From positions 4,704,001 to 4,768,000 of the forward strand of contig OZ251539.1 of the NCBI GenBank assembly GCA_965243135.1: a stretch of DNA of 64,000 nucleotides, given 5' to 3'. This document shows, one piece after another, positions 4,913 through 42,792 of this stretch (positions are counted from its first letter, which is position 1; every line of letters begins with the position of its first letter). The stretch is from Alphaproteobacteria bacterium (GTDB taxonomy: Bacteria; Pseudomonadota; Alphaproteobacteria; MPNO01; UBA830). The notes under the pieces were generated by a model. It saw only the letters and a list, made by a program, of their open reading frames with translations, searched no databases and had not been told where the DNA came from. The translations under genes and the position numbers were made by a program.

Positions 4913-5534
4913 TCAGGCAGCCCGGGCCAACCCCTCGAGGCGCGCCAGCCAAGCGCGAAATCGCGGGCATTCCGTCGTCTCCAGACCCGCTTCCCGTGCG
5001 ACCTGCGGGCCGTGCAGGCGTTTTTGGTATCCCGATACTGCTTGTTTGATTCGCTTGCTCGGCGCACCGTTCGGATCGTCGTTGATGTCTTCGGGAGTCG
5101 CGAACTGCCGACGGACTGCCGCAAGAATCTCGACGCTGCGGTCCGCGATGTCCAAGATCGTCCCGAACGCCGCCGTATCGGAAAACAGCAAGCCTTCGAA
5201 CTCGTGTTTCTGAACATAGGGAAACACCCGTCTTCCGTCTGGATTATGCGCGTAGATCTTTTGCTTCAGGCATTCTTCCAGCGTCTCGACCGTCCGATCT
5301 CCCTTGTCGCTAAAGCCGTAGAAGCGGACCAGCGACGTCACGGCGTCGAAAGACCGTTGGAGACGGCGCATCACGAGTCGTTCGATGCTGACATTTCCGC
5401 CGCCGGCCCCGCCGCTCCGGGCGCGGCCGAGCAGGAGTTGGCTCGACCTCGAACGGCCGCGGACGGTCGGCGAGAACGCGCTTGACGAACTCCCCTTCGG
5501 TCTGGCCCTCCACGGATATTGCGAGGCGGATCAC
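4913..5534 (-). pseudogene. DUF4276-family (TOPRIM-like) protein, frameshifted
   Basis: N-term IRLAISVEGQTEGEFVK (ORF 5310-5594) and C-term YVQKHEFEGLLFSD...PEDINDDPNGAPSKRI...CPRFRAWL (ORF 4913-5374) lie in different frames; may be an assembly error. Confidence 0.7.
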
Positions 5535-6682
5535 GGACGGCCTCCCAGCAGGTTCTTCTGCCAAAGCTCGCCTGTCGTATACTCCTTCAGCCAATCCCGA
5601 TAATCTTTCTCATCGCATCGGCGAATGGTCGTCCGCCCATCGTCCCGTGGTTCCAGAACGAGGATCTCGTCGAGACCGAACGCATCGACGAGCAGCGGGG
5701 ACTGCGTCGCCACGATGACCTGCCGCCGGTCAGCCAGCGCTTTGATCATGTCGCCGATCAGACTGGCAGCGGCCGGATGCAACCCGAGTTCCGGCTCGTC
5801 CAGCAGCAGCACGTCGGGAAGCATCTCGGACGGGAGGTTCAATAGCGTCACAAGGGCGAAGAAGCGAAGCGAGCCGTCGGACGTCAGATGGGCGCCGATG
5901 GTCTTGTCCATCCCCCGGATCTTCCACCGCAGCATGGCCTTTCCGCTGCTCTTCTCGATCTCGAACCGGTCGAAAACCGGCAGCGCGCGCTGGATATGGC
6001 TGCAAATCGACTTGAACCGCCGCCCGTCCTCGCGCTCCAAGCGGTATAGAATTGCCGCCAAATTTCCACCGTGCGCACGAAGATAGGCATTGTCTTCCGC
6101 GTCGCAATTCTTCTTGAGATTCGAGTCGCGGGAAGTGTCGTGAAACTGGTAAACGGCGCAGCGCCTCAACAAACCAGTGAGCGCATTGGCGACTTTAGCG
6201 CTGCCTCCTGACGGCTCGGCCGATTGCGCGGCTTCGACGATCTTCGCCTCGGAGTGGCCGCTTCCCAGATACTGCCACGATGCCTTCGTTTCCCGCCTGT
6301 CCGAGCAGAATCGAAACGCTTCGTCCGTGAAGATGAACCGATCCGGATGGGCGAAAGAAAGCATGAACATATAATCGTTTCGTCCGCTTTCCGCTCTCAT
6401 GGACAATTCGGCTTCCATCCGCGAGCTGACCTTGCTTCCGCCGAAAAGCTGGTCGTCGGCGCCGCCTTGAAGCTGAACGAACTCGGCCAGCCGGTGGAAG
6501 CCGATCATCCAATTCATCAATTCGAAAAACCGGACGAAGCTGGATTTTCCCGATCCGTTGGCGCCGACCAGAACGGTTGCCATCTGCAGGTTTTTGATTT
6601 CGACATCCGCAAGGGATCGAAAGCCTTTGATGCGGACGGATTCAATTTGATTTGGCACAGGGTTCTCTCGCGCGCCGATCAC
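5531..6682 (-). CDS. ABC/AAA_21-type ATPase (COG4637-like), partner of DUF4276
   Basis: IKGFRSL, Walker A GANGSGKS, signature TSDGSLRF, Walker B LLLDEPELGLHP, H-loop variant ATQSP. Confidence 0.85.
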   Translation of the reverse strand: MIGARENPVPNQIESVRIKGFRSLADVEIKNLQMATVLVGANGSGKSSFVRFFELMNWMIGFHRLAEFVQLQGGADDQLFGGSKVSSRMEAELSMRAESGRNDYMFMLSFAHPDRFIFTDEAFRFCSDRRETKASWQYLGSGHSEAKIVEAAQSAEPSGGSAKVANALTGLLRRCAVYQFHDTSRDSNLKKNCDAEDNAYLRAHGGNLAAILYRLEREDGRRFKSICSHIQRALPVFDRFEIEKSSGKAMLRWKIRGMDKTIGAHLTSDGSLRFFALVTLLNLPSEMLPDVLLLDEPELGLHPAAASLIGDMIKALADRRQVIVATQSPLLVDAFGLDEILVLEPRDDGRTTIRRCDEKDYRDWLKEYTTGELWQKNLLGGRP

Positions 6683-8019: not shown

Positions 8020-8277
8020 CTACGCCATCTGCCATCGTTCCAGTTCTGCGAAAAACTCCTTTCTCAGATCGGCTCTTTCCTCTTCCGGGAGCCATTTCGT
8101 CATATTGGGGAAGACAATCCGCCAACTGCGCAGCTCGGCTTCGCTCCATGGAAAGGTGTCGGCGCCGCGCAACACCTTCAGGATATTGTGCAAGCGGACA
8201 CGGATTTGATCCGGATCCGGCTCTTGAGGCAAGGAGTTTTCCGCTTGGTAATTCTCGAACAGATCGCCTTGATTCAT
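8020..8277 (-). CDS. Small hypothetical protein (85 aa)
   Basis: Protein-like composition, AAAGGA SD upstream, directly downstream of type ISP remnant. Confidence 0.65.
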   Translation of the reverse strand: MNQGDLFENYQAENSLPQEPDPDQIRVRLHNILKVLRGADTFPWSEAELRSWRIVFPNMTKWLPEEERADLRKEFFAELERWQMA

Positions 8278-8830
8278 ATCCTTTCTCCTCAGCTACTGCG
8301 TGGGTGCTGGTCAGCGCGGCTCCGGCGGCCGCATCGAGCAGTCTGTCCGCCGCGTCGAACAAATGCATGAGCTCTTCGATTCGCGCAATTATGTCGAGAA
8401 GCTCGCGCTGGAGGTGCCGATCCAGCGTTTCTCCTTTCCGTGCGTCGAGCCAGCGGCGGAGGACGGGGTATCCGCTGACAGCACCCCCCCCCATGTGCGA
8501 TTTGACACTCCAGTGATGCGGAGCGATCGGTCGCCGAGAAGGAAGACTGCACCTTCCTCGAATGCGCGCCGCGGCGGCGGAACGTCAAGTAGCGGACTAG
8601 ATGCACGTCCTTCCAGTCGCGCTTGCCGGAAGCGCTCGTCGGGTTCTGCGTCGAATGCCTGAAGTTTTCGGATGCGGGTGCCTAACGCCGCCGCGTCTTG
8701 GAATGCGTCGGGGTTTGCGGGAAAGGGAACATGCGGAAAGGCATCCTCAAGATCGTGTGCGAAGCGAATTGTGTAGGTTGCCGCAGAAAGCAAGGCGAGA
8801 ATCGCGCCGAATATCTCCTGTGACGCAATT
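8278..8830 (-). pseudogene. C-terminal fragment of a type ISP-like restriction-modification enzyme
   Basis: EIFGAILALLSAATYTIRFAHDLEDAFPHVPFP...VSGYPVLRRWLDARKG resembles the type ISP specificity domain; 5'-truncated, frameshift at C9 tract 8484-8492. Confidence 0.6.
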
Positions 8831-8839
8831 TGCGCACCA

Positions 8840-9050
8840 TGACCGAGAACATGTTTGGAACCAACCCAGGATGGAGTAAAGACCCTGTGCCCTCGCCGGT
8901 ATGGTTATCGTAGACGGTGTTCACGTCCACGACAGGGGAGTCGTCCTCAAGGTCAAACCCTGGGTGCGCATCGATTCTAAAGCTCTCGACATCGCTGAAC
9001 TGGCGCTTGAAGGCGGACTCGGCAATCTCGCGCCTCTGCCGCTCGTTCAT
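8840..9050 (-). pseudogene. Truncated small hypothetical gene
   Basis: MNERQRREIAESAFKRQFSDVE... preceded by AGGAAG; runs into the ISP remnant. Confidence 0.35.
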
Positions 9051-9186
9051 CTCGAACTTCCTACGGTTGGCGACGCTCCAACAACGCGCGAACGGCGAAG
9101 CCGCGCTAATGCTAAGCGTCGGCGCGCTCGAACCGGTCGATTGCGCCTCCAGGTTCGCGGTCTCTTTTTCGGGTGCGTCGGCAAAA

Positions 9187-10071
9187 TCAGTTTTTCTGTC
9201 TGCGAAGCGCGCGCGCATAGATTTCCTTACGTCGCTGTCCGGTCTCCGCAGCCACCGTTGCCACCGCGTCGCGCACGCTCATCGACTGCAGCGCGTTGTC
9301 GAGCAGCGTCTCCGCATCGGCGGGGGGAGTCTCGGGAGGCGGCCCGGTCAGGATTACGACTTCGCCCTTCGGCGTCGGGCCGCCGCCGAAAGCTGCCGCC
9401 AGCTCCGCCAAGCCGCCCCGAAGAACGTCTTCATGCAGTTTCGTGAGCTCCCGCGCCACGGCGGCCGGGCGGTCTCCCAGAATCTCTTCCATGACTTCAA
9501 GCGAGGCGGCCAGCCGGCGCGGGGATTCGAGAAAGATCAGGCTGGCGCGGACGCTCGCCAATTCCTCGATCGCCTTGCGGCGGGCCTGGTCGTTGGCCGG
9601 CAGATAGCCGGCGAAGAGAAAACGGTCCGTCGGCAGGCCCGAAACGACGAGGGCGGCGAGCGGCGCCGACGGTCCGGGGGCGCAGGTGACCGGGAGGTTC
9701 CGTTCGAGGGCGTCGCGAACCAGCTTGTAACCGGGGTCGGAAATCAGCGGCGTGCCGGCGTCGGACACCAGAGCAACAAGTTTCCCTTCTCCGAGATGTT
9801 CGATCAGCCGCGCACGTTTTTCGGGAGAACTGTGGTCGTGATACGACAACAACTTGCTTTTGATCCCGGCCGCGGCGAGCAGGCGGCCGGTGCGACGCGT
9901 GTCTTCGCACGCGACAATGTCGGCCGCCGCCAACACGTCGAACGCTCGCGCCGTCATGTCGCGCAGATTGCCGATCGGAGTCGCTACGATCCAGAGCCCG
10001 GCGTCCGGCCGTTTACTCGGAACGGCGGCGGCGATAGGGTGATCTGGAATTCGCGAATTCGGAGCCGTCAA
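9187..10071 (-). CDS. rsmI: 16S rRNA (cytidine1402-2'-O)-methyltransferase
   Basis: LWIVATPIGNLRDMT...ACEDTRRT...VSDAGTPLISDPG...FLESPRR; start codon uncertain. Confidence 0.95.
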   Translation of the reverse strand: MTAPNSRIPDHPIAAAVPSKRPDAGLWIVATPIGNLRDMTARAFDVLAAADIVACEDTRRTGRLLAAAGIKSKLLSYHDHSSPEKRARLIEHLGEGKLVALVSDAGTPLISDPGYKLVRDALERNLPVTCAPGPSAPLAALVVSGLPTDRFLFAGYLPANDQARRKAIEELASVRASLIFLESPRRLAASLEVMEEILGDRPAAVARELTKLHEDVLRGGLAELAAAFGGGPTPKGEVVILTGPPPETPPADAETLLDNALQSMSVRDAVATVAAETGQRRKEIYARALRRQKN

Positions 10072-13792: not shown

Positions 13793-14114
13793 GTAAAATT
13801 CTCCCTTGTCCGTTTCCCGGGCAGGCTATCGGAGACGGAGGCACCGGTAAAGACGCCGGACCAGCCCGTTTCGAGCCGCGTGCGCTGTTCGTAACGTCTT
13901 GAAATGCAGACAGCTTTCCGGGGTGCGGAATTTTTTCCTCGGGTACGGAAAACTGCGAATTCTCCGCGCCGAGATTTTCGCGGATTCCACCCCACGGCCG
14001 GCCGGACGCCGCCGCCCTGCGGCAAACGGCCGCACCGGGCAAAAAAATCTGGCCAAAGGGGTTCGCCACGGGTAGTGTTGTCAGCATCTCAACCCACAAC
14101 ACTGTGAGGTACCC

Positions 14115-15545
14115 GTGGCGACAGAACATTCTTTTCCTGGACCGATGTCGACAGGCTGCCCGACCTCCGGCGTCTGGCGCTGGTCCTCGAAGCGCTGCCG
14201 GACGGGCCGCTGCTGGCGCGGCTCAAGGAGCAGCGCGGGCGCGGGCGCGACGACTATCCGGTTCGCGTGGCGCGCGACGGTCGCGGGCATCGTGCTTCAG
14301 CACGAGTCCATCGAGTCGCTGATTCGAGAACTCAACCGCAACCCGGCGCTTCTGACGCTGTGCGGCTTCAACCCGCTCGACTACCAGGGCAAGCCGAAGG
14401 TCAAGGCCGACGACGACGGCAAGCCGCGGACGACGTCTCCGAAACCTCGCAGCGCGGTTCCCGGGAGCCACAACTTCTCCCGGTTCCTGAGCGCCCTCAT
14501 CAAGCTTGAGAGCAAGGATCCCTGGGTCGGCGGCATGGTCCAAGAGTTGCGGGAGCAGCTGACGGCGGAGTTGCCGGACTTCGGCGAGCACCTCGGCTAC
14601 GACGGCAAGGCAGTGGACAGCCACTCGACGGGGCAGGTCAGCCGCAAGACCGGCAAGACTTCCGACCCGGACGCCAACTGGGGGAAGCACGAGACCGTCG
14701 GCATAGACGGGAGGACCGGCAACCTCTGGACGAAGGTGAAGTCGTGGTTCGGGTTCGGGCTGCACGCCGACACCAAGTACGAGATCCCGGTGGCTTTCAG
14801 CGTTACCCAGGCATCGAGGGCCGAGACCAGGGAACTGGACGCGATGTTGGACAGGCTGTTCGGGGAAACGCCGCTGCTGGCCGGGCGCTGCAAGGACTTC
14901 AGCGCGGACCGGGGGCTCGACAGCGGACCGCTCAAGGCGAAGCTGTGGGACGAGTTCGGCCCCGTTGACGCGCCTGTTGTGGCGGGAAGAGAAGAAAGAC
15001 CCCGACTACGACCCCGACAAGCCCCCGTCCGCTCTTCGACGACAACATCTACCATACCGAGAGGGGCGAGGTGCTGTGCAAATGTCCCGAAACCAACGTC
15101 CAGCGGCACATGGCGTTCCAGGGCTTCGAGGCCAACCGCGGGGCGTGCGGCACCCTCAAGTACCGTTGCCCGGCGGCGGCCTTCGGCTTCGAATGTGCAG
15201 GTCGCAAGGAATGCCACCGGGCCGCCGAGTGCCAGGCCGGCGAGTACGGTCGCATCGTCCGCGTCGACCTGGAGAAGCATGACAGGCGGATGTTCACGCC
15301 GGTCCCCTGGGGCAGCCCCTCCTGGAAGCGCGGACCGCCGCTCCGCCATGGAGCGAATCTACAGCCGGGTCGACAATGCTTACCGCATGGAGAAGCACTA
15401 TGTCCGCGGCCTGCGGCAAATGCGCCTGCGGCTCGGCCTCGTGACAGTGGTCATGATGGCGACAGCGCTCGGGCACCTGCGGGCGGAACGCCAGGAGCGC
15501 ATGCGGTCGCTGGTCGCTCCGGTCGGGCTGCGCGACACGGGATGA
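14115..15545 (+). mobile_element. Frameshifted DDE transposase (IS4/IS5/IS1182-like clan); element ends not defined
   Basis: Across frames: GRGRDDYPVR, LIRELNRNPALLTLCGF, GYDGKAVDSH, KSWFGFGLH, SADRGLDS, KYRCPA, RSAMERIYSRVD; several frameshifts. Confidence 0.8.
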
Positions 15546-15978
15546 CCGCCGCGGTCGTCTGACCGCCCCCCCGGCCCCGCAACTGACCGCCTGCGTTCAG
15601 GCCACGGCCCGGCTCGCCCCGGGTTTGCGGCGCGGCGGCGCGGCAACCTGGTATTCGCTTTTTGTTCTGGAGTCTGAGCGTCCGCGAGGCCCTTGCGGGC
15701 CGCCGGCGGGCGGGCGGAGCGGCTCGCGGGGCGTCGGCCGGGCGGCGGACCGACAAAAAAATGGCACAGCGCAAGCGGCTCGTTTCCAGGTTCCCGATAT
15801 CGCGAGTGCATGCTATCTTTATGGATGAAAACAGGAAGAATTACTATGAAATACTTTGAAACAGAAAGATTTATTTGAGAATCATCGTAAAATCGAAAAT
15901 AAATCGTCCGTGGAACCTTGATTTGGTTTGTGCTAACGTAAACGATAGAATTGCTGTCACGGATGCGGAGAAGGCGAT

Positions 15979-17187
15979 ATGGATGCCGCATATCCGGCGA
16001 CCGTCAACGACGCCCAGTGCGTCCATTCTCGCCGGCATGCTTCAACGGTGGTCGACACGGTGCTGCTCAAGGTTGCGAGCCGGTGCAATCTCGATTGCAG
16101 TTATTGCTACGTCTATCGCATGGGCGACGACGCTTGGCGCAGCCAGCCCAAACGCATGTCGGAGGCCGTTCAACATGCGGCCGTTCGACAGCTGGCGAGT
16201 TTGTATTCCCGACAGCAACATCCGCTCAGCGTTGTGCTGCATGGCGGCGAGCCGCTGCTCATTGGAGCAAGTCGTCTTCGGGACCTTTGCGGGCAACTCC
16301 GCTCCGCCCTTCCCGCTCCGTGCGGAATTCATGTCCAAACGAATGGAATTCTTCTTGCGGACGACGTGATCGATATCTTCGTTGAATACGGCGTCGGAGT
16401 ATCGATCAGCATCGACGGCCCATCGGAGGTCCACGACCGATTTCGCCTTGATCACCAAGGAGGCGGATCACATGAACGCGTCCGGCGCGGAATTTCCCGG
16501 CTGACTGCGCGAACGGACGCGCGTCCCTTGTTTGCCGGAGTTCTGGCGGTGATCGACCCCGCGAGCTGTCCCGACTCCGTTTATCGCTCGCTCAAGGCGA
16601 CTGGCGCTCCGAGCATCGATTTTCTGGTTCGCGACGGAAATCATGCGTGCCTGCCGCCCGGGAAGGAACGCGTCGATTCGACGGAGTTCGGGCGCTGGAT
16701 GGCCAGCCTGCTCGATATCTACCTGAGCGATCCAAACCCGCCGCGAGTACGCATCCTTGACGATATGCTTCGCCTGATTCTCGGAGGAAAGTCGCAGAAG
16801 GAGGGCGTAGGCGTTGCCGATTACGGCATTCTCGTGATCGATACCGACGGCCGGATCAACAAGAACGATACGTTAAAAGCGGCCGGCAGAGCCGCCGACC
16901 GTTTTGAACGGGAGCCATGGTCGATACTGTCCGACAGTCTGCTCGACATCGTTCGCCATCCGGTCTATGCAGACTACTATCGCCAGCAGCGGCCGATGGC
17001 CCCTGCCTGTCTCGCGTGTCCCGAACTCGGCGTTTGCGGCGGCGGAATGGTCGCGCATCGATGGAGCGGGGAGCGGGGCTTCGACAACCCGACGGTGTTC
17101 TGCGCCGATCAATTGCTGCTGATCGGGCGCATGCGGGAGCGGGTCGCGCAATTTCTGGGCCCGTTCAAGCGGCGGGAAGCCGCATGA
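15979..17187 (+). CDS. yhhB: Cyclophane-forming radical SAM/SPASM peptide maturase (triceptide, YhhB/FxsB-like)
   Basis: KVASRCNLDCSYCYVY (CxxxCxxC), LHGGEPLL, SPASM cysteines CLACPELGVCGGG...NPTVFCAD; precursor directly downstream. Confidence 0.85.
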   Translation: MDAAYPATVNDAQCVHSRRHASTVVDTVLLKVASRCNLDCSYCYVYRMGDDAWRSQPKRMSEAVQHAAVRQLASLYSRQQHPLSVVLHGGEPLLIGASRLRDLCGQLRSALPAPCGIHVQTNGILLADDVIDIFVEYGVGVSISIDGPSEVHDRFRLDHQGGGSHERVRRGISRLTARTDARPLFAGVLAVIDPASCPDSVYRSLKATGAPSIDFLVRDGNHACLPPGKERVDSTEFGRWMASLLDIYLSDPNPPRVRILDDMLRLILGGKSQKEGVGVADYGILVIDTDGRINKNDTLKAAGRAADRFEREPWSILSDSLLDIVRHPVYADYYRQQRPMAPACLACPELGVCGGGMVAHRWSGERGFDNPTVFCADQLLLIGRMRERVAQFLGPFKRREAA

Positions 17188-17207
17188 ACAACGAAAAGGA
17201 GCATCCA

Positions 17208-17366
17208 ATGGCTGACAAGCGCGAGGAGGTTCGACCGGATCTGGACATCGAACCAACGAGCATCGACAGCGCCGCTTTGGCTCGACTTGTCGAGGAGGTG
17301 CGGAACAAGGGCGAAACCGTCTCGTCGGTCGCCTATAACCGCACGTACCATCGTCATAACAGGTGA
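17208..17366 (+). CDS. yhhA: RiPP precursor peptide, 52 aa (YhhA-like): MADKREEVRPDLDIEPTSIDSAALARLVEEVRNKGETVSSVAYNRTYHRHNR
   Basis: AAGGAG SD before ATG 17208 (alternative ATG 17184); leader SAALARLVEEV and core with three aromatic-X-X motifs YNR, YHR, HNR. Confidence 0.88.
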   Translation: MADKREEVRPDLDIEPTSIDSAALARLVEEVRNKGETVSSVAYNRTYHRHNR

Positions 17367-17968
17367 CTTGCGCGCTCTTGCGCGAAGACGCGGAAGTGGA
17401 GTTCCACGCCACTCCTTTCCGCTACTTCCTCGCGCGGCATTGCTTCTCGCCGGACCTTGAACCGACGCTTCTCGAATGGTTCGAATCCAGTGCGCCGTGG
17501 CGACTGGTGGAAACCGATTTCTACGAGCAGTACGAGTTCAGCATGTTCGACGCCGCTCTTCCGGAGAACGTTTCCCGGTTGACGGCACCGGAAGGTCTTG
17601 CGGCGTTTCGCTCCGCAATGGGCGCGCTTTTCGACGTCGAATTGGATGATCGGGTCGATCTGGTGGCGCACAGGCTGATGCCCGGACAGCGAATCGCGCT
17701 CCATAACGATTATCTGACCGGACAGGAAACGCATCGTCTCACCGTTCAGCTGAACCGGGGCCTGCGCGACGAGGACGGCGGTTTTTTCATGTTGTTCAAC
17801 AGCGCGGATCCTAACGACGTTGATCGGATCGTCCGTCCGGTCAGCGGAAGCGCGATCGGTTTCGAGATCGGCGAGAATTCCAACCATGCCGTTTCCCTCC
17901 TGCACGGCGGAGAACGCTATACGTTGGTCTACTCGTTCCGTTCCAGGCCCGTTGGTAAGCGAACCTAG
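17363..17968 (+). CDS. yhhC: 2OG-Fe(II) oxygenase RiPP tailoring enzyme (YhhC-like)
   Basis: HxD (IALHND), distal His (SNHAVS), 2OG-binding Arg (ERYTLVYSF); GTGA-coupled to precursor. Confidence 0.82.
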   Translation: MTCALLREDAEVEFHATPFRYFLARHCFSPDLEPTLLEWFESSAPWRLVETDFYEQYEFSMFDAALPENVSRLTAPEGLAAFRSAMGALFDVELDDRVDLVAHRLMPGQRIALHNDYLTGQETHRLTVQLNRGLRDEDGGFFMLFNSADPNDVDRIVRPVSGSAIGFEIGENSNHAVSLLHGGERYTLVYSFRSRPVGKRT

Positions 17969-18815
17969 GCAAGCGCTTATGGAGGCGCTGGCTCGTCCGA
18001 CCGAGCCGTGGTTCCCGGGGTTGGCTCGTCCGCTAACCGAAGCTGCTTGGCGAGAATGCAAGCATCGCGGCTTCGATTCCGCAAACTACGGAACGCATCG
18101 CTGGCTGTGCAACGATCCAAAAGCCATGCGCATGGAGGCAGCTGCGCTCAATATTGCTTTCGAGTGCAGGATCGAAAAATTGCCCGCGTCGACCCGCGCT
18201 AGGTACGAAGACTGCGGCTTGACCTTCTCGGAATCTACGTCGGCGGCCGATGTCGCTGCCGTTCGATCTGCGTTGTCTTTCATCGCTCTGCTTCCGAGCT
18301 TGCGGGAGACGATCTCGGCGTATTTGCGGGCTCTGCATATTCTCAAAGCGCCCGGTTCGGATTTCGACGTCAGTCACAGCGATCCGGAGGCGCCATTTTC
18401 GGTTTTCGTGTCGATTCCCCCTTCGTGTCCTGAGGCAGAACTGCGCCTTGCCGAATCCATAGTTCATGAATGTATGCATCTCCAGCTGACGATGATCGAA
18501 GCCGTCACACCGCTTGTTCGAGACTGCTATATCCAAGCTTATTCTCCATGGACCCAAACGACACGGCCACTTGGCGGGATATTGCACGGACTGTATGTGG
18601 TATCCGTGATATACTTCTGGTTCCTGTCCGGTCATGAAAATATAACATCGACTAAGAAAAAATTTGTTCATCAGCGCATGCGCACCATAGAGCGAGAAAT
18701 GAGAGAAACTTCATGGCTCGCCATATCGGAAGGATTAACCGACGCTGGGAAAGCCTTGGTTAGACAGGTTTTGCAACATCAAAAATATTTCATTAACTTT
18801 ATAGATAGTCAATAG
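17952..18815 (+). CDS. HExxH-motif peptide modification enzyme (alpha-KG-HExxH beta-hydroxylase-like)
   Basis: DVSHSDPEAPFSVFVS...LAESIVHECMHLQL...YSPW...RPLGGILHGLYV; start uncertain (17952 or 17979). Confidence 0.82.
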   Translation: MVSEPRQALMEALARPTEPWFPGLARPLTEAAWRECKHRGFDSANYGTHRWLCNDPKAMRMEAAALNIAFECRIEKLPASTRARYEDCGLTFSESTSAADVAAVRSALSFIALLPSLRETISAYLRALHILKAPGSDFDVSHSDPEAPFSVFVSIPPSCPEAELRLAESIVHECMHLQLTMIEAVTPLVRDCYIQAYSPWTQTTRPLGGILHGLYVVSVIYFWFLSGHENITSTKKKFVHQRMRTIEREMRETSWLAISEGLTDAGKALVRQVLQHQKYFINFIDSQ

Positions 18816-19554
18816 TCATAGCACTAAATTCCGCTGTTTGTTCTCTGTATGAAACTAGTTTGTTAACAGCTTTCTCTCGATCTTCTATGTCGTTTGGATC
18901 CGTGCTTCCGTCGAGCGCAAGAGCAATTATCTGTAACGTTTCCAAGATATCCAAATGCTTCAAACGTTGGTCTTTCAGAGCGGGCCGATTAAGATCTACA
19001 ACATCGATTGTCTTTCTTCCAATTTCCGTAACTCCAACAGCGACATTTTCAAAATATACGATGTGATTTCGTGGATCCTCAATACCACCAGGGTCGAGAA
19101 GCAATGGTTGTTCAATATCCACAGGGTCAATGTGTGAACAGGCCCTTTGAGCGTGATTTTTCAACGGAAATAGCTCTCTTTTTGAACTTCTGTTGCAATG
19201 TTCGCAAGAATAATATAAATTTTTCCAGCAGTATGCTAGCCAGTAATATCCCGGGTAGATTCGTGATCCCGTCTCGCTTTGTTTTACCGCCCCTTTGGGC
19301 CGATAATGCTCAATGTCGCCAGACGAAAAAGCTTCAAACTTTCCCTCACAATAGCAACATTTTCCGTGTTGATCTTTTCGTAGGGTTCGTTTTACAGTAT
19401 TATGAGAATATATTCCTCTATCGAAGTCAAAGGTTTTTTCACCAGTTAAATAGATCTCTCGATTTTCCTCAAATAGTCGGCAAAGTTCCATACGGCGTTC
19501 CATTCCGGACGTCGTGAGAATTATAGGAGAAGGCGATTTATTGACCCGGATCAT
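18799..19554 (-). CDS. HNH endonuclease (PtuB/TIGR02646-like)
   Basis: QHGKCCYCE, DIEHYRPKG, YWLAYCWKNLYYSCEHCN, PLLLDP. Confidence 0.85.
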   Translation of the reverse strand: MIRVNKSPSPIILTTSGMERRMELCRLFEENREIYLTGEKTFDFDRGIYSHNTVKRTLRKDQHGKCCYCEGKFEAFSSGDIEHYRPKGAVKQSETGSRIYPGYYWLAYCWKNLYYSCEHCNRSSKRELFPLKNHAQRACSHIDPVDIEQPLLLDPGGIEDPRNHIVYFENVAVGVTEIGRKTIDVVDLNRPALKDQRLKHLDILETLQIIALALDGSTDPNDIEDREKAVNKLVSYREQTAEFSAMTIDYL

Positions 19555-20911
19555 CGGAGGCGTCTTTCAACCCAAGGCGTTTGGCTACGCTACGGATGAT
19601 CTCCATCGCGCTTTCATCTTCTTGAGAATCGGCAGTCGGTAATTTTCGTTCGCGCTGCCGTAATTCGTTAAGTTCTTTTTTTTCTTTCTCCGACAAATCA
19701 GATCTCTGAATAAGACTATTATATCTTTCCCTCCACTTTTCCACTTCATGTGAACGTGATGAAGGCAAATCAAACAGTTCACTAGTGATAAGTTGATCCA
19801 GTCTCCAGCCTTGAACAATAGCGGGGTCATTGACGATTTCCGTGTGGTCTTCTGATCGGCGAAGAACGGCCACGTTGGCATCCAAAGAGTTCAGAGCCAT
19901 CAGCGGACTATGCGCAGTTGCGATAAACTGAATATTGGGAAAGTATTCTGTCAGACGGTCGCGGATTTTCCGCTGCCAGCTCGGATGTAGATGCAGGTCG
20001 ATTTCATCGACTATCACGATGGCTGGTTCGCGAAGAGGATCAGAGCTGTTTTCGTAGTGGCCGAGCAGTCTCGAAGCGATATCGGTGATCCACGCAAACA
20101 TAGTCTGATAGCCGAGGCTTAGTTGATGAAATGACACGTTTCCGTAAGGAGTATCTACGCGAATTCCTGACTTTTCAGGAGAAATTCCAGGGCCTGGGGG
20201 CGCGAAGATCTCGATTGAATCAGGGTTGGAAATATCTTCAATAATCTTGGACAGTATCATTCTGATACCATCCAATTTTTTTTGCGCCATGAGATCTCCT
20301 TTCATGGACGCATGGTCGAGGCGATAGAGAAAATCTTCTGCGTCGCAAAGCGAAGATTCTACCTTGAACAACGATACGGTCGGATCAGTTTCAGGTGTGA
20401 TATCTACATTCGCCACCCTAGGATGTCGTCCGGCACCATAAGCCAAAACAAGAGGTTCTTCCGCATTGACTTCTTCGGGTTCTCCACTAGAGCTGACGTC
20501 CGCAATTTGTCCATCCTTCCGTTTTATTTCATGGAGCGTTGAAATGGATTTTGAACCTACTTGATGTTTGTCGGATAATTTGCACAAGGAAAGGTGGGTT
20601 TCCAACCTTGCGGGGGAGTCGGTGCCATGACGAGCCAATCTCTTAAGAACTTCGTTCTCGGGTTCTCGCGCCAACTCAGGTTCTACAGGATTGGGCAATG
20701 TGCCTTTATTGTCGTCGGGAGGACGATTGAACATAGGGCGCATTCGCACGAGACACTGGAGCAATGTGGTTTTTCCAACTCCGTTGTCGCCGACAATAAG
20801 AGTCCACGGGGCAGGGCACCCCGCGTCGTTGGTAAGGTCCAACTCTTGGCGATCAGCGAATGATCGGATATTCTCTATATTCAACTTCGTAAAGTAAATA
20901 GCATTCGACAT
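19538..20911 (-). CDS. ABC-type ATPase (PtuA-like)
   Basis: IENIRSF, GDNGVGKTT, QLSLGYQ, IVDEIDLHLHPSWQ, QFIATAHSP; overlaps the HNH start. Confidence 0.88.
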   Translation of the reverse strand: MSNAIYFTKLNIENIRSFADRQELDLTNDAGCPAPWTLIVGDNGVGKTTLLQCLVRMRPMFNRPPDDNKGTLPNPVEPELAREPENEVLKRLARHGTDSPARLETHLSLCKLSDKHQVGSKSISTLHEIKRKDGQIADVSSSGEPEEVNAEEPLVLAYGAGRHPRVANVDITPETDPTVSLFKVESSLCDAEDFLYRLDHASMKGDLMAQKKLDGIRMILSKIIEDISNPDSIEIFAPPGPGISPEKSGIRVDTPYGNVSFHQLSLGYQTMFAWITDIASRLLGHYENSSDPLREPAIVIVDEIDLHLHPSWQRKIRDRLTEYFPNIQFIATAHSPLMALNSLDANVAVLRRSEDHTEIVNDPAIVQGWRLDQLITSELFDLPSSRSHEVEKWRERYNSLIQRSDLSEKEKKELNELRQRERKLPTADSQEDESAMEIIRSVAKRLGLKDASDDPGQ

Positions 20912-21410
20912 TAGTGGCTCCGATCACGAGCGCTGAAGTCGGCAGGCTACTATAGCAAGGCAAACTCTTGACCTCGGACAAATAGTCAGACGGTCAAGCG
21001 ATGTCAAGCTGCACCTCATACGGAGCTGACAGCGCGTTTGGATGTGGAAAGGGTGCCGATGCCAGCGGGTCGTGAAACCTGTCGCAGGCAGTGGCAATGG
21101 ATACCGGGAGCGAGCCGAGGCCCGCTTGCCCCGCGCCGCTTGGCGGTGCGGGGGCGGCTGGCGCAAGGAAGGCGGTTCCTTGCCGCGAGCGCGGAGAAGA
21201 ACGGGAACCCCGAATCCGTCCGCGCTGCGCGAAGATCGTGCGACCGGGAGGCGCTGCGGAAGAGCGCTCTCGAGACGGCCTGCGGCGGCACCGTGGCGTC
21301 AAATCAGGAACGGGCGTACCAGACGGAAGGAACGGAAGAAATTTGCCGCCTCTTCCCCGGCGGGCCTCGGAGGATTGCGCCGAGACTTGAAAGCCCCGCG
21401 GGAAGAATTT

Positions 21411-23653
21411 CAGACCTCCTGACATGGTATGCGGAACTTGAAGATTTTGCTTGACTTTTCTCCAGGGCGTCGTAAATTAGAATGTACCACTTTCTGGAGA
21501 ATACCATGTTCCAGTCCCGCCTCGCCGTCCTGCCCGAAAATGCGACCGTGATCAGCGACAGACTGGCCTGTGTCCGCGACGATGGACATCTTGAGTTTTT
21601 CAATCCGGGCGGCCCGATTTATCGCTGCGCGGAAGACGACAAGGCGGGCCTGCGTCTGGCGCAGGGTTTGCTCGGCGACCTCGGGCTGGCGACGGTGGCG
21701 GCGCTGTCGCGCGTCTTCGGCGTTTCCCGCCTCACCATCCGTCGCAACCGGGACGCCTACCGGTCCCGCAACGTGGCGGCCTTCGCCAAAGAGCGCGGAC
21801 CGCGCGGAGGGTACAAGCTGACGGAGCTGGCACTGCAACGGGCACAGGAGGCACTCGACGAAGGGCGGTCGCAAGTTGCGGCGGCGAAGGCCGCGGGCGT
21901 GACCGAGGGGACGATCCGCCATGCCCTGCGGCAGGGGACCCTGCGCGCGGACCGGCGGCAGGGTCCGGGAACGCAGCCATCGGTGCGGTCCGCGACGGAC
22001 GGGCGCTGCGAAGGCGGCGTCGCGGTCAAGCGGGTCGAGGAACGGGTGCTTGCGAGCGTGGGAGAACTCGCCGAGGCCTCGACGCGTTTCGAGGCGGCGG
22101 AATCGGTGCCCGGCGCGGGTGTCTTGCTGGCGTTGCCGGCGCTGCTGCACGAGGGGCTGGTCGAGGTTACGGAGGAGGTTTACGGACAGCTTGAGAAGGG
22201 GTTCTTCGGCTTGCGCAGCATATTGTTGACGCTGGCCTTCATGGCCTTGCTGCGCATCAGGAACGCGGAACAACTGAAGGGCCATGCCCCGGGAGAGCTG
22301 GGCCTGCTGCTCGGTCTCGACCGGGCTCCGGAGATGAAGACGCTGCGCCGCAAGCTGAAGGAGGTCGGTCGGCGCGGTCTGGCGCGGCGACTGGCCGAAG
22401 CGTTTACCCGACGGTGGGCGGAGGCCGAGCCGGAAGCACTCGGCTTCCTGTACGTCGACGGACATGTGCGACCCTACCACGGACGCAAGCACCGCCTTCC
22501 CGAAACGTTCGTGCCGCGTCGGCGCCTGTGCATGCCGGCGACGACCGACACCTGGGTCAACGACGCTCGGGCGCAGCCGTGGTTCTTCGTTTCCATGGAG
22601 GCCAATGACGGCCTGCTGCAGGCGCTGGACAGGGATGTCCTGCCGCGGATACGAAAGGAGGGGCGCGTGACCGTCGTTTTCGATCGCGAGGGCTGGAGCC
22701 CGGAAACGTTCCGGCGCTGGGCGGCGGAAGGCGTCGATGTCATGACCTACCGGAAGGGCCATTATTCCCCTTGGCCGGAGGAAGGCTTCACGACGGTGGA
22801 GGACCCCGCGTCCGGCGTCCGTTACCGGCTGGCCGAACGGGAGACGGGTCTCGGCGAGAAAAGGTTCAAGATGCGCGAGGTGCGGCGGCTGTGCGACAAC
22901 GGCCATCAGACCGTGACGACCCGCCGGGACCTGCCGACCGTCGAGGTCGCCTCGCGAATGTTCGCCCGCTGGAACCAGGAGAATTACTTTCGCTACATGC
23001 GGCACGAGTTCGCGCTCGACCATCTTTGCACCTACGAGACCGAGCCGGCCGACCCCGAACGGATAATCCCCAACCCGCCGTACAAGGAATGCAAGGCGCG
23101 GATCGAAAGCCTCGAAGCGAAGATCGGGCGCATCCGGAAACAGCAGTGGAAGGACGAAAAGAAAGGCAGAACCGCGAGGAGCGGCAAGGCATCCCCGGAA
23201 GAACGCATCAAGGAACTCGAAGTCCTGATCGAGGAATGCGAGGCGCGCCTGGAAACCCTGCCGGAAAGAGTGCCTGTCAAGGAAACCATGGACGAGGAGG
23301 AGATCGTCAGACTCGAACCCGAGCGGAAGATCTTCACCGACCTCGTCAGGATGGCGGCTTACCGGGCGGAAAGCGCGATGCTCGCTCCCCTCGGTCCGCT
23401 GCTGAACCGGAGCGAGGACGAAGGCCGCGCCTTTCTCCAAACCCTGTTTCGAACCCCGGCCGACCTCGTCCCGGGTGACGGATGCCTCACCGTGCGCTTC
23501 CATTCCATGTCGCAGCCCCGCTTCAACAAGGCGCTTCGGGAACTCTGTGCCATGACCACTCGCGAAGGCCATGCCTACCCCGGCACCGGGCTGAAACTGG
23601 CGTTCGAGGGACCCCTGCTGGAAAATTGAATTTACGCGATGTCAGGAGGTCTG
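21411..23653 (+). mobile_element. Complete insertion sequence with 15-bp terminal IRs and 5-bp target duplication
   Basis: CAGACCTCCTGACAT (21411-21425) and ATGTCAGGAGGTCTG (23639-23653), flanked by AATTT at 21406-21410 and 23654-23658. Confidence 0.92.
21482..23629 (+). CDS. Large putative DDE transposase with N-terminal HTH repeats
   Basis: LYVDGHVRPYHG, VVFDREGWS, RWNQENYFR acidic motifs; fills the IR-bounded element. Confidence 0.85.
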   Translation: MYHFLENTMFQSRLAVLPENATVISDRLACVRDDGHLEFFNPGGPIYRCAEDDKAGLRLAQGLLGDLGLATVAALSRVFGVSRLTIRRNRDAYRSRNVAAFAKERGPRGGYKLTELALQRAQEALDEGRSQVAAAKAAGVTEGTIRHALRQGTLRADRRQGPGTQPSVRSATDGRCEGGVAVKRVEERVLASVGELAEASTRFEAAESVPGAGVLLALPALLHEGLVEVTEEVYGQLEKGFFGLRSILLTLAFMALLRIRNAEQLKGHAPGELGLLLGLDRAPEMKTLRRKLKEVGRRGLARRLAEAFTRRWAEAEPEALGFLYVDGHVRPYHGRKHRLPETFVPRRRLCMPATTDTWVNDARAQPWFFVSMEANDGLLQALDRDVLPRIRKEGRVTVVFDREGWSPETFRRWAAEGVDVMTYRKGHYSPWPEEGFTTVEDPASGVRYRLAERETGLGEKRFKMREVRRLCDNGHQTVTTRRDLPTVEVASRMFARWNQENYFRYMRHEFALDHLCTYETEPADPERIIPNPPYKECKARIESLEAKIGRIRKQQWKDEKKGRTARSGKASPEERIKELEVLIEECEARLETLPERVPVKETMDEEEIVRLEPERKIFTDLVRMAAYRAESAMLAPLGPLLNRSEDEGRAFLQTLFRTPADLVPGDGCLTVRFHSMSQPRFNKALRELCAMTTREGHAYPGTGLKLAFEGPLLEN

Positions 23654-23702
23654 AATTTGGAGGCTCCGTTTCGCGACTCCCGCCGAGGCAGAATTCGGAG
23701 CG

Positions 23703-24828: not shown

Positions 24829-25526
24829 ACGAACAGGATAAATTGCGCGACGAGCCCTCGGCGGAGGAAACCGGAACCGGGACGGAAGAGCCCGAACCTC
24901 GGGAGGACGCCGGGAACCCCGACGAGACGCCTTCGCCCGAAGCGAGAGCGGAGGACGAACGGGCCGAAGAGGAACCCTCCGAAGAGGCGGAGCCCGACGA
25001 GGTCGCCGAATTGAAGGACAAGCTTCTCCGTTCCCTCGCCGACATGGAGAATTTGCGCAGGCGATCGCAGAAGGACCGCGACGACGCGTCGAAGTACGGC
25101 ATCTCCAACTTCGCGCGCGACATGCTTTCGGTCGCCGACAACCTGCGGCGCGCGATCGACTCGCTGCCTCCCGACGAAGAGTCGGGCGCGATGGCCGGAT
25201 TCGTCGAAGGCGTGGCGTTGACGGAGAAGGAAATGCTGTCGGCCTTCGAGCGCCACGGCATCGGCCGAATCGATCCTGCCGGCGAGAAATTCGATCCGCG
25301 CTTCCACGAAGCGATGTTCGAACTGCCGACGGCGGAAGCCGATCCGGGAACGGTCGTGCAGGTCCTCGAGGTGGGTTATCGGATTCACGACCGCTTGCTG
25401 AGGCCGGCCAAGGTGGCCGTCGCGAAGGAGCCCGCCGAACCCCCGGCCGAAAGCGCGTCCGACCCGGGCGAAGCGTCCGCTGCGGAAGAGCCGGACGGCG
25501 CGGAGACCACCCCGCCCCGGTCCTGA
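24825..25526 (+). CDS. grpE: Nucleotide exchange factor GrpE
   Basis: LRSLADMENLRRR, FDPRFHEAM, GYRIHDRLLRPAKVAV. Confidence 0.95.
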   Translation: MNEQDKLRDEPSAEETGTGTEEPEPREDAGNPDETPSPEARAEDERAEEEPSEEAEPDEVAELKDKLLRSLADMENLRRRSQKDRDDASKYGISNFARDMLSVADNLRRAIDSLPPDEESGAMAGFVEGVALTEKEMLSAFERHGIGRIDPAGEKFDPRFHEAMFELPTAEADPGTVVQVLEVGYRIHDRLLRPAKVAVAKEPAEPPAESASDPGEASAAEEPDGAETTPPRS

Positions 25527-26377
25527 AGCAGCAGCCCGCGCAGCCGCGCGGCGGCGCGGTCGTGGTCCGATACGGCGTAGCAATACACGCAGCCGTGGGC
25601 GCAGGTGTCGTAGGCGCCTATGTCGCGGCTTTCGGCGCAAAGGCATCCCGCCCGGTTTCCTTTCTGCCGGGCCGCGATGTCGCGCCCGGCGACGTCGGAC
25701 AGCCGGCCGGCGTCTATGCAGCGCGCCGGCGTCGCGGGTGCGCAGGTCGTTTCCGGCTGGCTGCAAACCGTGAGCCGCATTCCGAAATCGCTCGCGTCGG
25801 CGGCCAGTCCGCGGCAGATTTCGCGTCTTTCGCCTTCCTCCGGGTCGCGCCAGGTGAATTCGCGCAGTTGCGCCGCGCGGTCGAGACGGCGGCGCGTCTT
25901 GCGGTAGACGTGCGCGAAGGAGATCGTGCATTCGTCCACAGCCCCGGCGAGGCGCGCCGCCAGCGCCGCGAAGTTCCGGGCGTGCCAGGCAGGCGGAGTG
26001 GCGGAGGTGACGATCACCGGATCGTAGCGCCAGACCACGGCGCGGCGTCCGTATTTTCGCGAGAGCGCGGCGATCTGCTCCGCGGCGTCGTCCGCCCGCG
26101 GCGTGCGCGCGTCGAGGAGGCGCGGATAGCCGGTGACGGTGAATTGCACGACGAAAGGCAGGTTTAGCGCCGTCACGTCCTGCAACGCGTCCGCGAAGGG
26201 CGCGGCGTTTCGGGTCCAGAACACGAACCCGTCGGCGCCGCGGGGCGAGAGGTCGACGCGATAGGGCCGACCGCCGTAAGGATTGCCGACGACGCAAAAG
26301 CCCTCCGCGAGGCGCGCGCGGAACCAGTCCGCCCGAAAGGCCGGTATGTCGGTGCGGTAGCTTGCGGAAACGATCAT
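25385..26377 (-). CDS. DUF1848 family protein
   Basis: MIVSASYRTDIPAF, VFWTRN, WRYDPV, C-terminal GCLCAESRDIGAYDTCAHGCVYCYA. Confidence 0.85.
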   Translation of the reverse strand: MIVSASYRTDIPAFRADWFRARLAEGFCVVGNPYGGRPYRVDLSPRGADGFVFWTRNAAPFADALQDVTALNLPFVVQFTVTGYPRLLDARTPRADDAAEQIAALSRKYGRRAVVWRYDPVIVTSATPPAWHARNFAALAARLAGAVDECTISFAHVYRKTRRRLDRAAQLREFTWRDPEEGERREICRGLAADASDFGMRLTVCSQPETTCAPATPARCIDAGRLSDVAGRDIAARQKGNRAGCLCAESRDIGAYDTCAHGCVYCYAVSDHDRAAARLRGLLLQDRGGVVSAPSGSSAADASPGSDALSAGGSAGSFATATLAGLSKRS

Positions 26378-37713: not shown

Positions 37714-39240
37714 ATGAAACGCGCACTGCCCATCGGCATCCAGACTTTCCGCGAGATCCGGGAGGAAGGTCATTACTACGTCGACAAGACAGCTTACGCT
37801 TGGCGATTGACGGAAAGAGACAAGCACTACTTCCTGTCGCGACCGCGGCGTTTCGGCAAGAGCCTGTTCGTGGACACGCTGAAGGAGCTATTCGAGGGTG
37901 CCGAGCCGCTGTTCCGGGGGCTGGATATCCATGGGCGCTGGGACTGGTCGATCCGCCATCCGGTGCTGCGGATCAGTTTCGGTTCCGGCCAGCTCGGCAA
38001 CCCCGACCGGCTGCACAGGAACGCGATGATGCAGCTCGACATCGCCGAGAAGCGCGCCGGCGTCCAATGCGGCGACCCCGACGCGTCCGACCGCCTTCAT
38101 CGTCTGATCGCCGAACTGCACGAGCGCGCGGGGCGGCGCGTGGTCGTGCTCGTGGACGAATACGACAAGCCGATCCTGGACGCGCTCGGCGACCGGGAAC
38201 TGGCGCGGGCCACCCGCGACTTCCTGCGCGGCTTCTACAGCGTCGTCAAGGACTGCGACTCGCATATCCGGTTCACCTTCCTTACCGGCGTGAGCAAGTT
38301 GGCTGGCCTGTTCTCGGGCCTGAACAATCTGACCGACATCACGCTGGAGCCGGAGTTTTCGGCCATCTGCGGCTACACGGACGCGGAGCTGGACGCGGTC
38401 TTCGCCCCGGAACTCGAGGGCCTGGACCGGGACGAGATCCGCCGCTGGTACAACGGCTACAGCTGGCGGGGCGCGGAGAAACTCTACAACCCGTACGATG
38501 TCCTGCTGCTTTTCCGGCGTCGCCAGTTCGAGGCGCACTGGTTCCGGAGCGGCACGCCGACCTTCCTCGTCGACCTTTTGTCGCGGCGACGGATCGAGGC
38601 GCCGACATTGGAAGGACTTGTCGCGGATGACGATCTGCTGTCAGCCTTCGACGTCGACGACATCTCGACCGAAGCGCTTTTGTTCCAGACCGGCTACCTG
38701 ACCATCGTCGGCGAGGAGGCCGCCGCTGGCGGACGCCTGTACCGGTTGGATTACCCGAACCGCGGGGTGAAGCTCAGCCTGAACAAGCGGTTGCTGCGCG
38801 CGGCGGCGCCGGTAACTGGACAAGAGGCGACAAGGCAGGCGGAACTGGCCAGGCTGACGGCGGAGGACAATCCGGAGAAGGTGAAGGCGCTGTTCGAGGC
38901 GTTCTTCGCGAGCGTTCCTCACGACTGGCACCGGAAGAACGACCTCTACGAGGGCTATTGGGCGGCCCTCGTCTACTCGCACTTCGCGGCGGCGGGTCTG
39001 GACGTTCGGGTCGAGGAAGCGACTGTCCGCGGACGTCTGGACATGGCGGTGCTGACTCCGGGGTGCGTGCATCTGTACGAGTTCAAGGTCGTGGACCGGG
39101 GGCCGGAAGGCCGGGCGCTGGCACGGGAGCGCGGCTACGCGGACAAGTACCGGCATCTTGGGGTGCCGATCCGGTTGATCGGCATGGAGTTCGGCCGGGA
39201 GGAGCGCAACATCGTTGGATTCGAGCATGAAGCCGCTTGA
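37714..39240 (+). CDS. AAA-ATPase-like protein with C-terminal PD-(D/E)XK nuclease (DUF1703 type)
   Basis: LPIGIQTF, YVDKT, LSRPRRFGKSL, LVDEYDKP, WYNGY, GRLDM...YEFK. Confidence 0.9.
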   Translation: MKRALPIGIQTFREIREEGHYYVDKTAYAWRLTERDKHYFLSRPRRFGKSLFVDTLKELFEGAEPLFRGLDIHGRWDWSIRHPVLRISFGSGQLGNPDRLHRNAMMQLDIAEKRAGVQCGDPDASDRLHRLIAELHERAGRRVVVLVDEYDKPILDALGDRELARATRDFLRGFYSVVKDCDSHIRFTFLTGVSKLAGLFSGLNNLTDITLEPEFSAICGYTDAELDAVFAPELEGLDRDEIRRWYNGYSWRGAEKLYNPYDVLLLFRRRQFEAHWFRSGTPTFLVDLLSRRRIEAPTLEGLVADDDLLSAFDVDDISTEALLFQTGYLTIVGEEAAAGGRLYRLDYPNRGVKLSLNKRLLRAAAPVTGQEATRQAELARLTAEDNPEKVKALFEAFFASVPHDWHRKNDLYEGYWAALVYSHFAAAGLDVRVEEATVRGRLDMAVLTPGCVHLYEFKVVDRGPEGRALARERGYADKYRHLGVPIRLIGMEFGREERNIVGFEHEAA

Positions 39241-42164: not shown

Positions 42165-42224
42165 GAGAGTTCTTGCAGGCTCAAGCCCGTCGCGCTCAAG
42201 TTCGGACCAAAATTCCTTTTCCGA

Positions 42225-42524: not shown

Positions 42525-42792
42525 GCTTTCACCCCCATGCTGCATTCTTCGGCTTTCCGACGGTCCGGGAACGCTGTGCGCGATTCCAGTCTCCGAAGGC
42601 GACATCGGTTGACTACCCTCGTGGCGGGCCCTCTCGCCGGTTGTAGGCAGCCGGTAGCCCGACCAATCGTGTTGGCTCGCCGCTTCTGACCGTATGGTTA
42701 AGGTAGCACCGGCGAATTCCGATTTCAATCGGCGATCGCTCGCAATCGAACGACGCAAAGTCAATATTTGGAAACGAATTCGACGATTTATA

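Follow-up and report, generated by a model that had tools for sequence, protein, structure and literature searches.

A conserved union of a triceptide gene cluster and a Septu nuclease pair as a candidate composite anti-phage module

The 64,000-nucleotide stretch analysed here (contig OZ251539.1 of an alphaproteobacterial genome, positions 4,704,001 to 4,768,000; hereafter the window) carries a cassette in which four genes of a pathway for a ribosomally synthesised peptide that is modified after translation (RiPP) stand beside the ptuA and ptuB genes of a Septu-type pair. The peptide genes are those for the radical S-adenosylmethionine (rSAM) maturase YhhB, its precursor YhhA, the 2-oxoglutarate (2OG) oxygenase YhhC and an alpha-ketoglutarate (aKG)-HExxH-type hydroxylase (Table 1). 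PtuA and/or PtuB is found directly beside the Yhh genes in 16 of the 19 informative loci of the same clade, which makes the Septu pair a member of a conserved six-gene unit. We read this unit as a possible composite anti-phage module that would combine an intracellular peptide with a swappable effector, and we put the probability of this reading, which draws on gene content and on analogy, at about 45%. The RiPP family, Septu and the anti-phage lanthipeptides are each known; the novelty, to judge from the literature searched, is that a triceptide cluster is joined in a conserved way to Septu and, occasionally, to SIR2.

A first-pass annotation, made from the letters of the window, had described four tightly packed peptide genes, among them a 52-residue precursor ending in YNR-T-YHR-HNR, next to a Septu-like pair and transposases. 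The four genes lie where that annotation placed them and all score above the NCBIfam cut-offs, far beyond chance. These matches establish their membership of the YhhABC and HExxH families. PADLOC has no Yhh proteins listed and yields just generic viperin and 2OG domain matches. In YhhB, the CxxxCxxC motif (C36, C40 and C43) is invariant in 8 homologues, as are C344, C347, C353 and C375 of the putative SPASM region, which Pfam leaves unscored and which the NCBIfam name includes. The precursor is most likely correctly called: the sequence AAGGAG (17197-17202) lies 5 nt upstream of the ATG at 17208 as a ribosome-binding site, this start aligns with those of 14 homologues, and the product matches NF041705. 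YhhA contains the leader motif DSAALARLVEEVRN and the C-terminal core AYNRTYHRHNR, read as YNR-T-YHR-HNR. The core is conserved across 15 aligned precursors, in which Y51, R53, R57, H58, N59 and R60 are invariant. The HExxH gene more likely starts at the ATG at 17979 than at the listed TTG at 17820, which would overlap yhhC by 149 nt, and its homologues (30-54% identity) occupy the same position in 15 loci. Two loci, L002 and L145, have two YhhA precursors that flank yhhB (9909-10010 and 11245-11349 in L002; 9464-9583 and 10808-10912 in L145), the members of each pair differing in the middle motif, HNR versus YHR.

The YhhA/YhhB/YhhC triceptide system was reportedly introduced by Sugiyama et al. 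in JACS in 2022. As the family has already been characterised, the chemistry is not new. According to the accessible part of a review, YhhB makes Tyr C3-Arg C-beta and His C2-Arg C-beta cyclophanes (PMC11002830), and YhhC is described, in the portion available of a second source, as yielding erythro-beta-hydroxy-Asp in YhhA (PMC12186529). The excerpted text of a third describes aKG-HExxH enzymes that hydroxylate His, Asp and Gln in RiPPs, with backbone cleavage also possible (PMC12636437). From family membership and this published chemistry, YhhB of the window would cross-link the three aromatic-X-Arg motifs of YhhA, joining a Tyr or His ring to the Arg C-beta, YhhC would beta-hydroxylate Asn/Asp in the middle of the motifs, and the aKG-HExxH enzyme would add further hydroxyls, probably on His or Asn.

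Both Septu proteins match their PADLOC models over nearly their full length. In PtuA, Walker A (G41-T49) and the Walker B residues D302/E303 are invariant in 8 homologues. In PtuB, none of E82, H83, N112 and N121 varies among 10 Yhh-linked homologues, in which C66, C67, C69, C117 and C120 are invariant or nearly so. The ptuA stop and the ptuB start overlap by 17 nt. At the level of sequence, the two genes constitute a bona fide Septu pair. The convergent 3' ends of the HExxH gene and ptuB also overlap by 17 nt (18799-18815), and the same two ends overlap or abut in L001, L002, L007 and L030. No terminator-like site lies between the HExxH gene and ptuB at any of these convergent junctions (the window and the four loci just named), and with ends that overlap or abut in this way, transcription from both sides would collide. 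The Yhh-linked PtuAs have an acidic stretch after Walker A, (V/I)EP(E/A/D)L..E.(D/N)N, that 3 stand-alone relatives lack; it may be just a clade marker. A tblastn search of plasmids with PtuA at 1e-40 returned no match. The idea that the locus is a retron was ruled out: it has no reverse transcriptase open reading frame (ORF) and 0 Rfam matches at E <=0.1, and the retron-type PtuA and PtuB models of NCBIfam score far below cut-off (NF041760, 146.5 vs 500; NF041761, 47.1 vs 150).

Table 1 Features of the cassette and of its immediate surroundings in the window
Feature	Position	Strand	Basis and remarks
Six-gene cassette, 5.6 kb	~15810-21404		Contigs of other strains without the insertion sequence (IS) elements
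yhhB, cyclophane-forming radical SAM/SPASM peptide maturase, 402 aa	15979-17187	+	NF041707, 482.8 bits vs cut-off 445; PF04055
yhhA, 52-aa precursor	17208-17366	+	NF041705, 50.6 bits vs cut-off 36
yhhC, 2OG-Fe(II) oxygenase	17363-17968	+	NF041706, 244.5 bits vs cut-off 150; PF13640
aKG-HExxH-type peptide beta-hydroxylase, 278 aa	17979-18815	+	TIGR04267, 84.4 bits vs cut-off 40; motif HECMH
ptuB, Septu-type HNH nuclease, 251 aa	18799-19554	-	PADLOC PDLC00339, 9.2e-85 over 1-250
ptuA, Septu-type ABC/AAA_15-21 ATPase, 457 aa	19538-20911	-	PADLOC PDLC00304, 7.6e-136 over 4-446; PF13304, PF13175
AT-rich leader region of the cassette	15810-15978	+	Promoter-like site 15856-15885 from a consensus scan, pattern match only
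Left IS element, degenerate IS5/IS1182-like	13859-15809		Transposase ORF 14115-15545; weak transposase hidden Markov model matches
Right IS element	21406-23658	+	Transposase_29 ORF 21482-23629; PF21804, 5e-97

Relatives of YhhB were drawn from four sources. A genome scan with a single protein reached close relatives (19 loci), and the best 80 of 409 relatives came from a metagenome scan with an 8-sequence alignment. Among 401 genomes of the phylum of the window, a family search put 2 above cut-off, including the window's own, and a prospective test on 401 genomes of the order of genome G421 gave 5 above cut-off, 4 of them new. All loci were compared by tblastn with the six window proteins, and gene calls in the related loci came from a crude ORF picker. 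Requiring a YhhB identity of at least 45%, with YhhA- and YhhC-type genes alongside wherever the contig extends far enough, delimits a clade of 21 loci (the window, L001-L007, L024, L027-L031, L057, L067, L076 and L142-L145), after which the next best rSAM enzymes reach at most 38% identity. The contigs of L031 and L057 are too short, leaving the 19 loci with sufficient flank. Where the pair is adjacent, it stands in convergent order in eight loci (the window, L001, L002, L007, L027, L030, L143 and L145), in divergent order in four (L004, L005, L028 and L067) and in co-directional order in four (L029, L076, L144 and L003). Of the 4 new genomes from the prospective test, 3 have an adjacent pair. 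Among 86 loci of other related rSAM enzymes, none has a PtuA or PtuB match (tblastn, E <=1e-4); flanks were measured for 84 of these loci and reach 3 kb or more on a side in 60. When the predicted neighbours in 17 loci were compared all against all, only the six families recurred. The hosts of the clade loci are labelled Alphaproteobacteria, Thermodesulfobacteriota, Acidobacteriota and Actinomycetota. Together, these comparisons of gene neighbourhoods establish the Septu pair as a conserved partner of the Yhh genes, in a linkage that is specific, crosses phyla and is kept through rearrangement.

The first-pass annotation had seen no peptidase, transporter or regulator at the locus, and the ORF listing of the window indeed has no such gene between the two IS elements. 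Elsewhere, a Pfam run on 110 neighbour proteins of 13 clade loci and on the flanks of the window detected neither an ABC or PCAT exporter nor a peptidase that recurs between loci in those flanks. The transporters near the clade loci are all host-type (TctA, MFS, cation efflux and a TonB receptor) and lie outside the low-GC (guanine plus cytosine) block. Among control rSAM loci, an ABC/PCAT exporter stands next to the rSAM gene in 3 of 9, two of these with a C39 peptidase domain. Further defence genes occur near 7 of 14 clade loci (PADLOC, 1e-15) and near 1-2 of 8 controls (SIR2 in L036; an Mrr-like nuclease in L033); the comparisons of adjacent Septu pairs and of exporters are between small samples of related loci. 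The genes concerned in the clade are HEC-01A/B (in the window), Cas10d with Cas6d, Shedu SduA, PDC-S60, a DrmD-like helicase, a Dsr1-like protein and a type I restriction enzyme, and many clade loci carry integrases, a relaxase, a type IV coupling protein (T4CP) or ArdC. The defence-type surroundings first noticed in the window recur in the clade, where defence and mobile genes are found around the loci. Given the lack of exporter and peptidase, the peptide, possibly with its leader still attached, would act inside the producing cell, an assignment that leans on gene content and on analogy with anti-phage lanthipeptides.

The check that the first-pass annotation had proposed, a survey of homologous loci for linkage to defence or to exporters, spoke for that annotation, and more strongly than predicted, with PtuAB at the count given above and no dedicated exporters or peptidases. 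Its interpretation, an intracellular peptide acting in phage defence, stood as far as the linkage to defence without exporters is concerned; its treatment of the Septu pair as a chance island neighbour did not, since the pair belongs to a conserved six-gene unit.

Two precedents, retron Ec78 and the exporter-poor anti-phage lanthipeptide clusters, make the composite anti-phage reading plausible, and from them and the gene content we infer that the six genes would work as one anti-phage system. The peptide module would be its constant part and the effector its swappable part: in the window this effector is PtuAB, and rare relatives would use a SIR2 or a DUF4062-TPR protein instead. More speculatively, the modified cationic peptide might restrain or license the effector, much as the multicopy single-stranded DNA (msDNA) does with PtuAB in retron Ec78, and infection might disturb the balance between peptide and effector. 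A wider version of this idea, which we consider doubtful, is that YhhA-type triceptides supply a modular immune system with its small-molecule half. A constantly made, cross-linked cationic peptide would then check or arm a swappable effector (the PtuAB nuclease, a SIR2 NADase, the DUF4062-TPR protein or perhaps a short prokaryotic Argonaute, pAgo), which would fire when a phage interferes with the peptide or its synthesis.

Several observations weigh against a single six-gene system. Three clade loci (L006, L024 and L142) lack an adjacent PtuAB, and genomes G722 (with L142) and G383 (with L024; an unpublished genome) have Yhh genes and no PtuA. In the genome of L006, PtuAB lies on another contig, with identities of 62% and 55% to the Yhh-linked counterparts in L004. 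The pair of L003 is a decayed remnant. Five plasmid loci with yhhA/yhhB annotated by PGAP (Prokaryotic Genome Annotation Pipeline), 34-44% identical, have no adjacent PtuAB either. Conversely, 3 of 401 genomes have relatives of this PtuA (34-44% identity) and no YhhB. In the PtuA tree these stand-alone relatives form a separate clade (support 97/100) and the Yhh-linked PtuAs an unresolved polytomy, so that the tree accommodates one origin of the linkage or more. Kinship among the loci inflates the counts relative to the number of independent events. The exporter search covered flanks, and an exporter encoded elsewhere in the genome is possible.

The degree of coupling between the two halves bears on the same question. 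Identities of YhhB correlate with those of PtuB (Mantel r = 0.63, p ~0.0006) and weakly with those of PtuA (Mantel r = 0.38, p ~0.05). L004 and L005 are 90% identical in YhhB and 88% in YhhC but 41% in PtuA and 46% in PtuB, and their DNA similarity begins ~50 nt upstream of yhhA. Either the partner has therefore been swapped or its evolution is fast, and this speaks against an interface at which peptide and protein have closely co-evolved. Furthermore, the peptide core is almost invariant while PtuA falls to 31% identity, and a near-invariant core is as compatible with a conserved target in the cell or the phage as with PtuA. Structure prediction points weakly the other way: a complex of PtuA, PtuB and unmodified YhhA, predicted with alignments, scored 0.35 against 0.03 for the best of 3 controls, and the signal was gone when PtuA was replaced. 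The runs shared at least 33% of their contacts, with a predicted local distance difference test (pLDDT) value of the partner of at least 46. In calibration, 58 of 80 solved complexes passed the mark, as did 2 of 110 mismatched pairs, and scores of 0.60 or less comprised 7 of the 80 solved complexes and both passing mismatches; the prediction is thus weakly suggestive of a contact between YhhA and PtuA.

What stands beside the Yhh genes where the pair is not adjacent is varied. In L142, a 679-aa SIR2 protein is encoded divergently from yhhA, with a type IIG restriction enzyme after it. This SIR2 protein shares 39% identity with the one next to a distant locus with a fused rSAM-HExxH gene (L036), whose precursor ends in SYDRMHHRHSRS. 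In L024, a DUF4062-TPR protein holds the same divergent position. The third such locus, L006 (Sphingomonas folli), has an MvdD-like ATP-grasp gene (8113-9222) just upstream of yhhA, which hints at a hybrid RiPP pathway. In most of the plasmid loci, YhhB and HExxH are fused, and GNAT and GT2 genes come next. The neighbours in the five are a short pAgo pair (Piwi + SMEK), a CBASS operon with SIR2, a Fic protein and a large AAA ATPase, and one of the five has an AAA+HNH pair 4 kb off that is 27-29% identical to PtuAB; these neighbours are anecdotes, not a count. On the sphingomonad and rhizobial plasmids with loci L114-L117, the order is yhhA, yhhB fused to HExxH, a hypothetical gene, GNAT and GT2, and where IS21 has inserted, HExxH follows yhhB unfused. 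No exporter was seen at these four loci, and two of them have His-Xaa-Ser (HxsABC) rSAM systems just downstream.

The near-invariance of the core across phyla, set beside a PtuA that drops to 31% identity and has been exchanged between near-identical Yhh modules, is also what would be expected of two parallel defences, in which the Yhh peptide is an intracellular antiviral aimed at a conserved phage or host process, PtuAB is a stand-alone Septu system and the two are linked as complementary. Yhh genes with other partners or with none, stand-alone PtuABs of the same subfamily and the lanthipeptide precedent (in the accessible text of bioRxiv 10.1101/2024.06.26.600839) speak for this account, which we judge unlikely because ordinary island neighbours are not conserved and no other flanking gene recurs here, because the adjacency is kept through three gene orders, with overlapping 3' ends or start and stop codons, and because the adjacent partner is PtuAB in 16 of 19 loci, never a random pick from the defence repertoire. 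The weak predicted contact of YhhA with PtuA counts against it too. Somewhat less probable still is mere hitch-hiking, in which descent alone holds the six genes together as a single piece of mobile DNA, the peptide serving some purpose other than phage defence (for example as a secreted antibiotic, signal or metal binder) and leaving through a general exporter. The cassette is absent from the corresponding locus in 11 of 11 relatives and lower in GC, conjugative or integrative elements hold many of the homologous loci (a relaxase, T4CP, integrases or ArdC being nearby), and the literature searched, as far as its accessible parts go, gives no biological role for triceptides. Descent alone, however, would not keep the adjacency through three rearrangements and down to 45% identity in YhhB and 31% in PtuA with other neighbours changing. 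Nor would it explain why 0 of the 86 related rSAM loci have PtuAB, why another defence-type protein fills the partner position in two loci without adjacent PtuAB, or why the flanks of 13 related loci and the window contain no ABC/PCAT exporter against 3 of 9 in the controls.

A very improbable alternative casts PtuAB as an addiction device that stabilises the cassette, with the peptide as antidote and without a role in phage defence. It takes its appeal from the toxicity of the PtuAB of retron Ec78 once freed from its retron, as described in the available portion of PMC12819146, and from the want of a recombinase in the cassette. Against it stand the pattern itself, which is hard to separate from abortive-infection defence of the same architecture, the full-length Septu matches in PADLOC, and neighbours in 7 of 14 loci that are defence and not plasmid maintenance genes. 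The composite anti-phage reading thus remains the one we prefer. The linkage makes a biological role of triceptides testable, a first for this peptide family. If the link is functional, anti-phage RiPPs reach beyond actinobacterial lanthipeptides, Septu has been co-opted a second time besides retrons, and exporter-less peptide natural-product clusters are a place to look for immune functions; if it is not, the locus is still an unusually tight case of two co-travelling modules. Should the peptide guard the effector, it would parallel retron msDNA in peptide form, and no earlier RiPP would have served as an immune guard, not a weapon.

Compared with the YhhABC triceptide system, the cassette shares the three families above their cut-offs and the precursor logic of a C-terminal Tyr/His-X-Arg, and adds an HExxH hydroxylase on a gene of its own, together with PtuAB as a conserved partner. 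With stand-alone Septu it has in common the full-length PADLOC matches, the overlapping ptuA and ptuB genes and intact Walker A/B and HNH residues; the difference is that the pair here is tied to a RiPP cluster. Fused rSAM-aKG-HExxH cyclophane synthases of the ChlB type are said to have been described by Morishita et al. in Nat Chem in 2024. They likewise combine cyclophane formation with subsequent beta-hydroxylation by an HExxH domain, the two activities being on separate genes here, and fused relatives with YhhA-type precursors occur on plasmids. The accessible part of one source has ChlH hydroxylating His and Asp (PMC12636437).

The closest likeness in the use of Septu is to retron Ec78 (type I-A), which consists of a reverse transcriptase, a non-coding RNA with its msDNA, and PtuAB. 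In the part of PMC12819146 that is available, the retron co-opts PtuAB and its msDNA sequesters the pair until infection. Both cases join a Septu pair to a module that makes a small, non-protein-like product, but the cassette has no reverse transcriptase and no Rfam match, and the partner would be a modified peptide, not DNA. The closest likeness in function is to the lanthiphages and lanthivirins, which are presented in the accessible text of two preprints as anti-phage class I lanthipeptide clusters of Actinobacteria (bioRxiv 10.1101/2024.06.26.600839; 10.64898/2026.08.26.747419). In the excerpts of the former, lanthiphage clusters lie near defence systems in 26.6% vs 5.6% and near ABC transporters in 18.3% vs 63.4% of cases, and lanthiphages protect Streptomyces from inside the cell, no protease being found in the clusters. 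The Yhh loci resemble them in the enrichment of defence genes and the lack of exporters relative to sister clusters. They differ in RiPP class and enzymes and in hosts, which are mainly Proteobacteria and other Gram-negative phyla. Lanthiphages are linked to islands in general, with phage protection demonstrated, whereas the Yhh genes are linked, by gene neighbourhood, to one specific effector pair. No LanB/LanC lanthionine domains were found in the domain scans, and the resemblance to lanthivirins is functional only. The literature searched contains no triceptide-Septu (or SIR2) union, although the original YhhABC gene maps may already show the ATPase and HNH genes. Likewise, the anti-phage RiPP literature searched has nothing on triceptides, and a language-model survey of defence names no radical SAM peptide system.

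The cassette, which is clearly mobile, is inserted between rph and hrcA and consists of the six genes only, with hemN, rdgB and rph to its left and hrcA, grpE, dnaK and dnaJ to its right. Relatives within the genus, family or order have rph next to hrcA in divergent orientation, ~130-240 bp apart, at 11 of 11 loci; in the window the distance is 9.9 kb. The GC content of the inserted unit is 0.44-0.61 vs ~0.66 around it, and the block is below its flanks in L001 and L007 as well. The ORF listing includes no recombinase gene within the cassette. The transposases that the first-pass annotation reported belong to IS elements, one on each side. One contig from a DNA run joins 13858 to 15810 and thus lacks the left IS, and contigs from two DNA runs join 21404 to 23653, without the right IS, which is bounded by 20-nt inverted repeats (21406-21425 and 23639-23658). 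Both elements are secondary insertions that arrived later, outside the cassette, and the inserted unit proper therefore spans ~15810-21404. A composite transposon was ruled out: other strains hold the cassette without either IS. The left IS end (13870-13900) is repeated at at least 10 places in the genome, and because of this recurrence the element is or was active. Viral contigs yielded a single distant rSAM (33% identity) and no YhhB-clade locus, and thus no indication that phages carry the cassette. No RNA data set is listed as containing the cassette.

A second candidate defence pair lies on the minus strand ~9 kb to the left of the cassette, with housekeeping genes between (5003-6679; GC 0.58-0.62). 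It comprises a HEC-01B-like ORF (5003-5371) and a HEC-01A-like AAA_21 ATPase (5531-6679; PADLOC 2.6e-114). Between grpE and dnaK, a DUF1848 protein (25385-26377, minus strand) matches a DRT-associated PADLOC model at 4e-34; no reverse transcriptase was seen near it. A predicted AAA-ATPase plus PD-(D/E)XK_9 protein is encoded at 37714-39240 on the plus strand. Two further patches of low GC (0.52-0.60), at 42000-44200, with a DUF6788 protein at 43278-44195, and at 60000-63000, may be other insertions.

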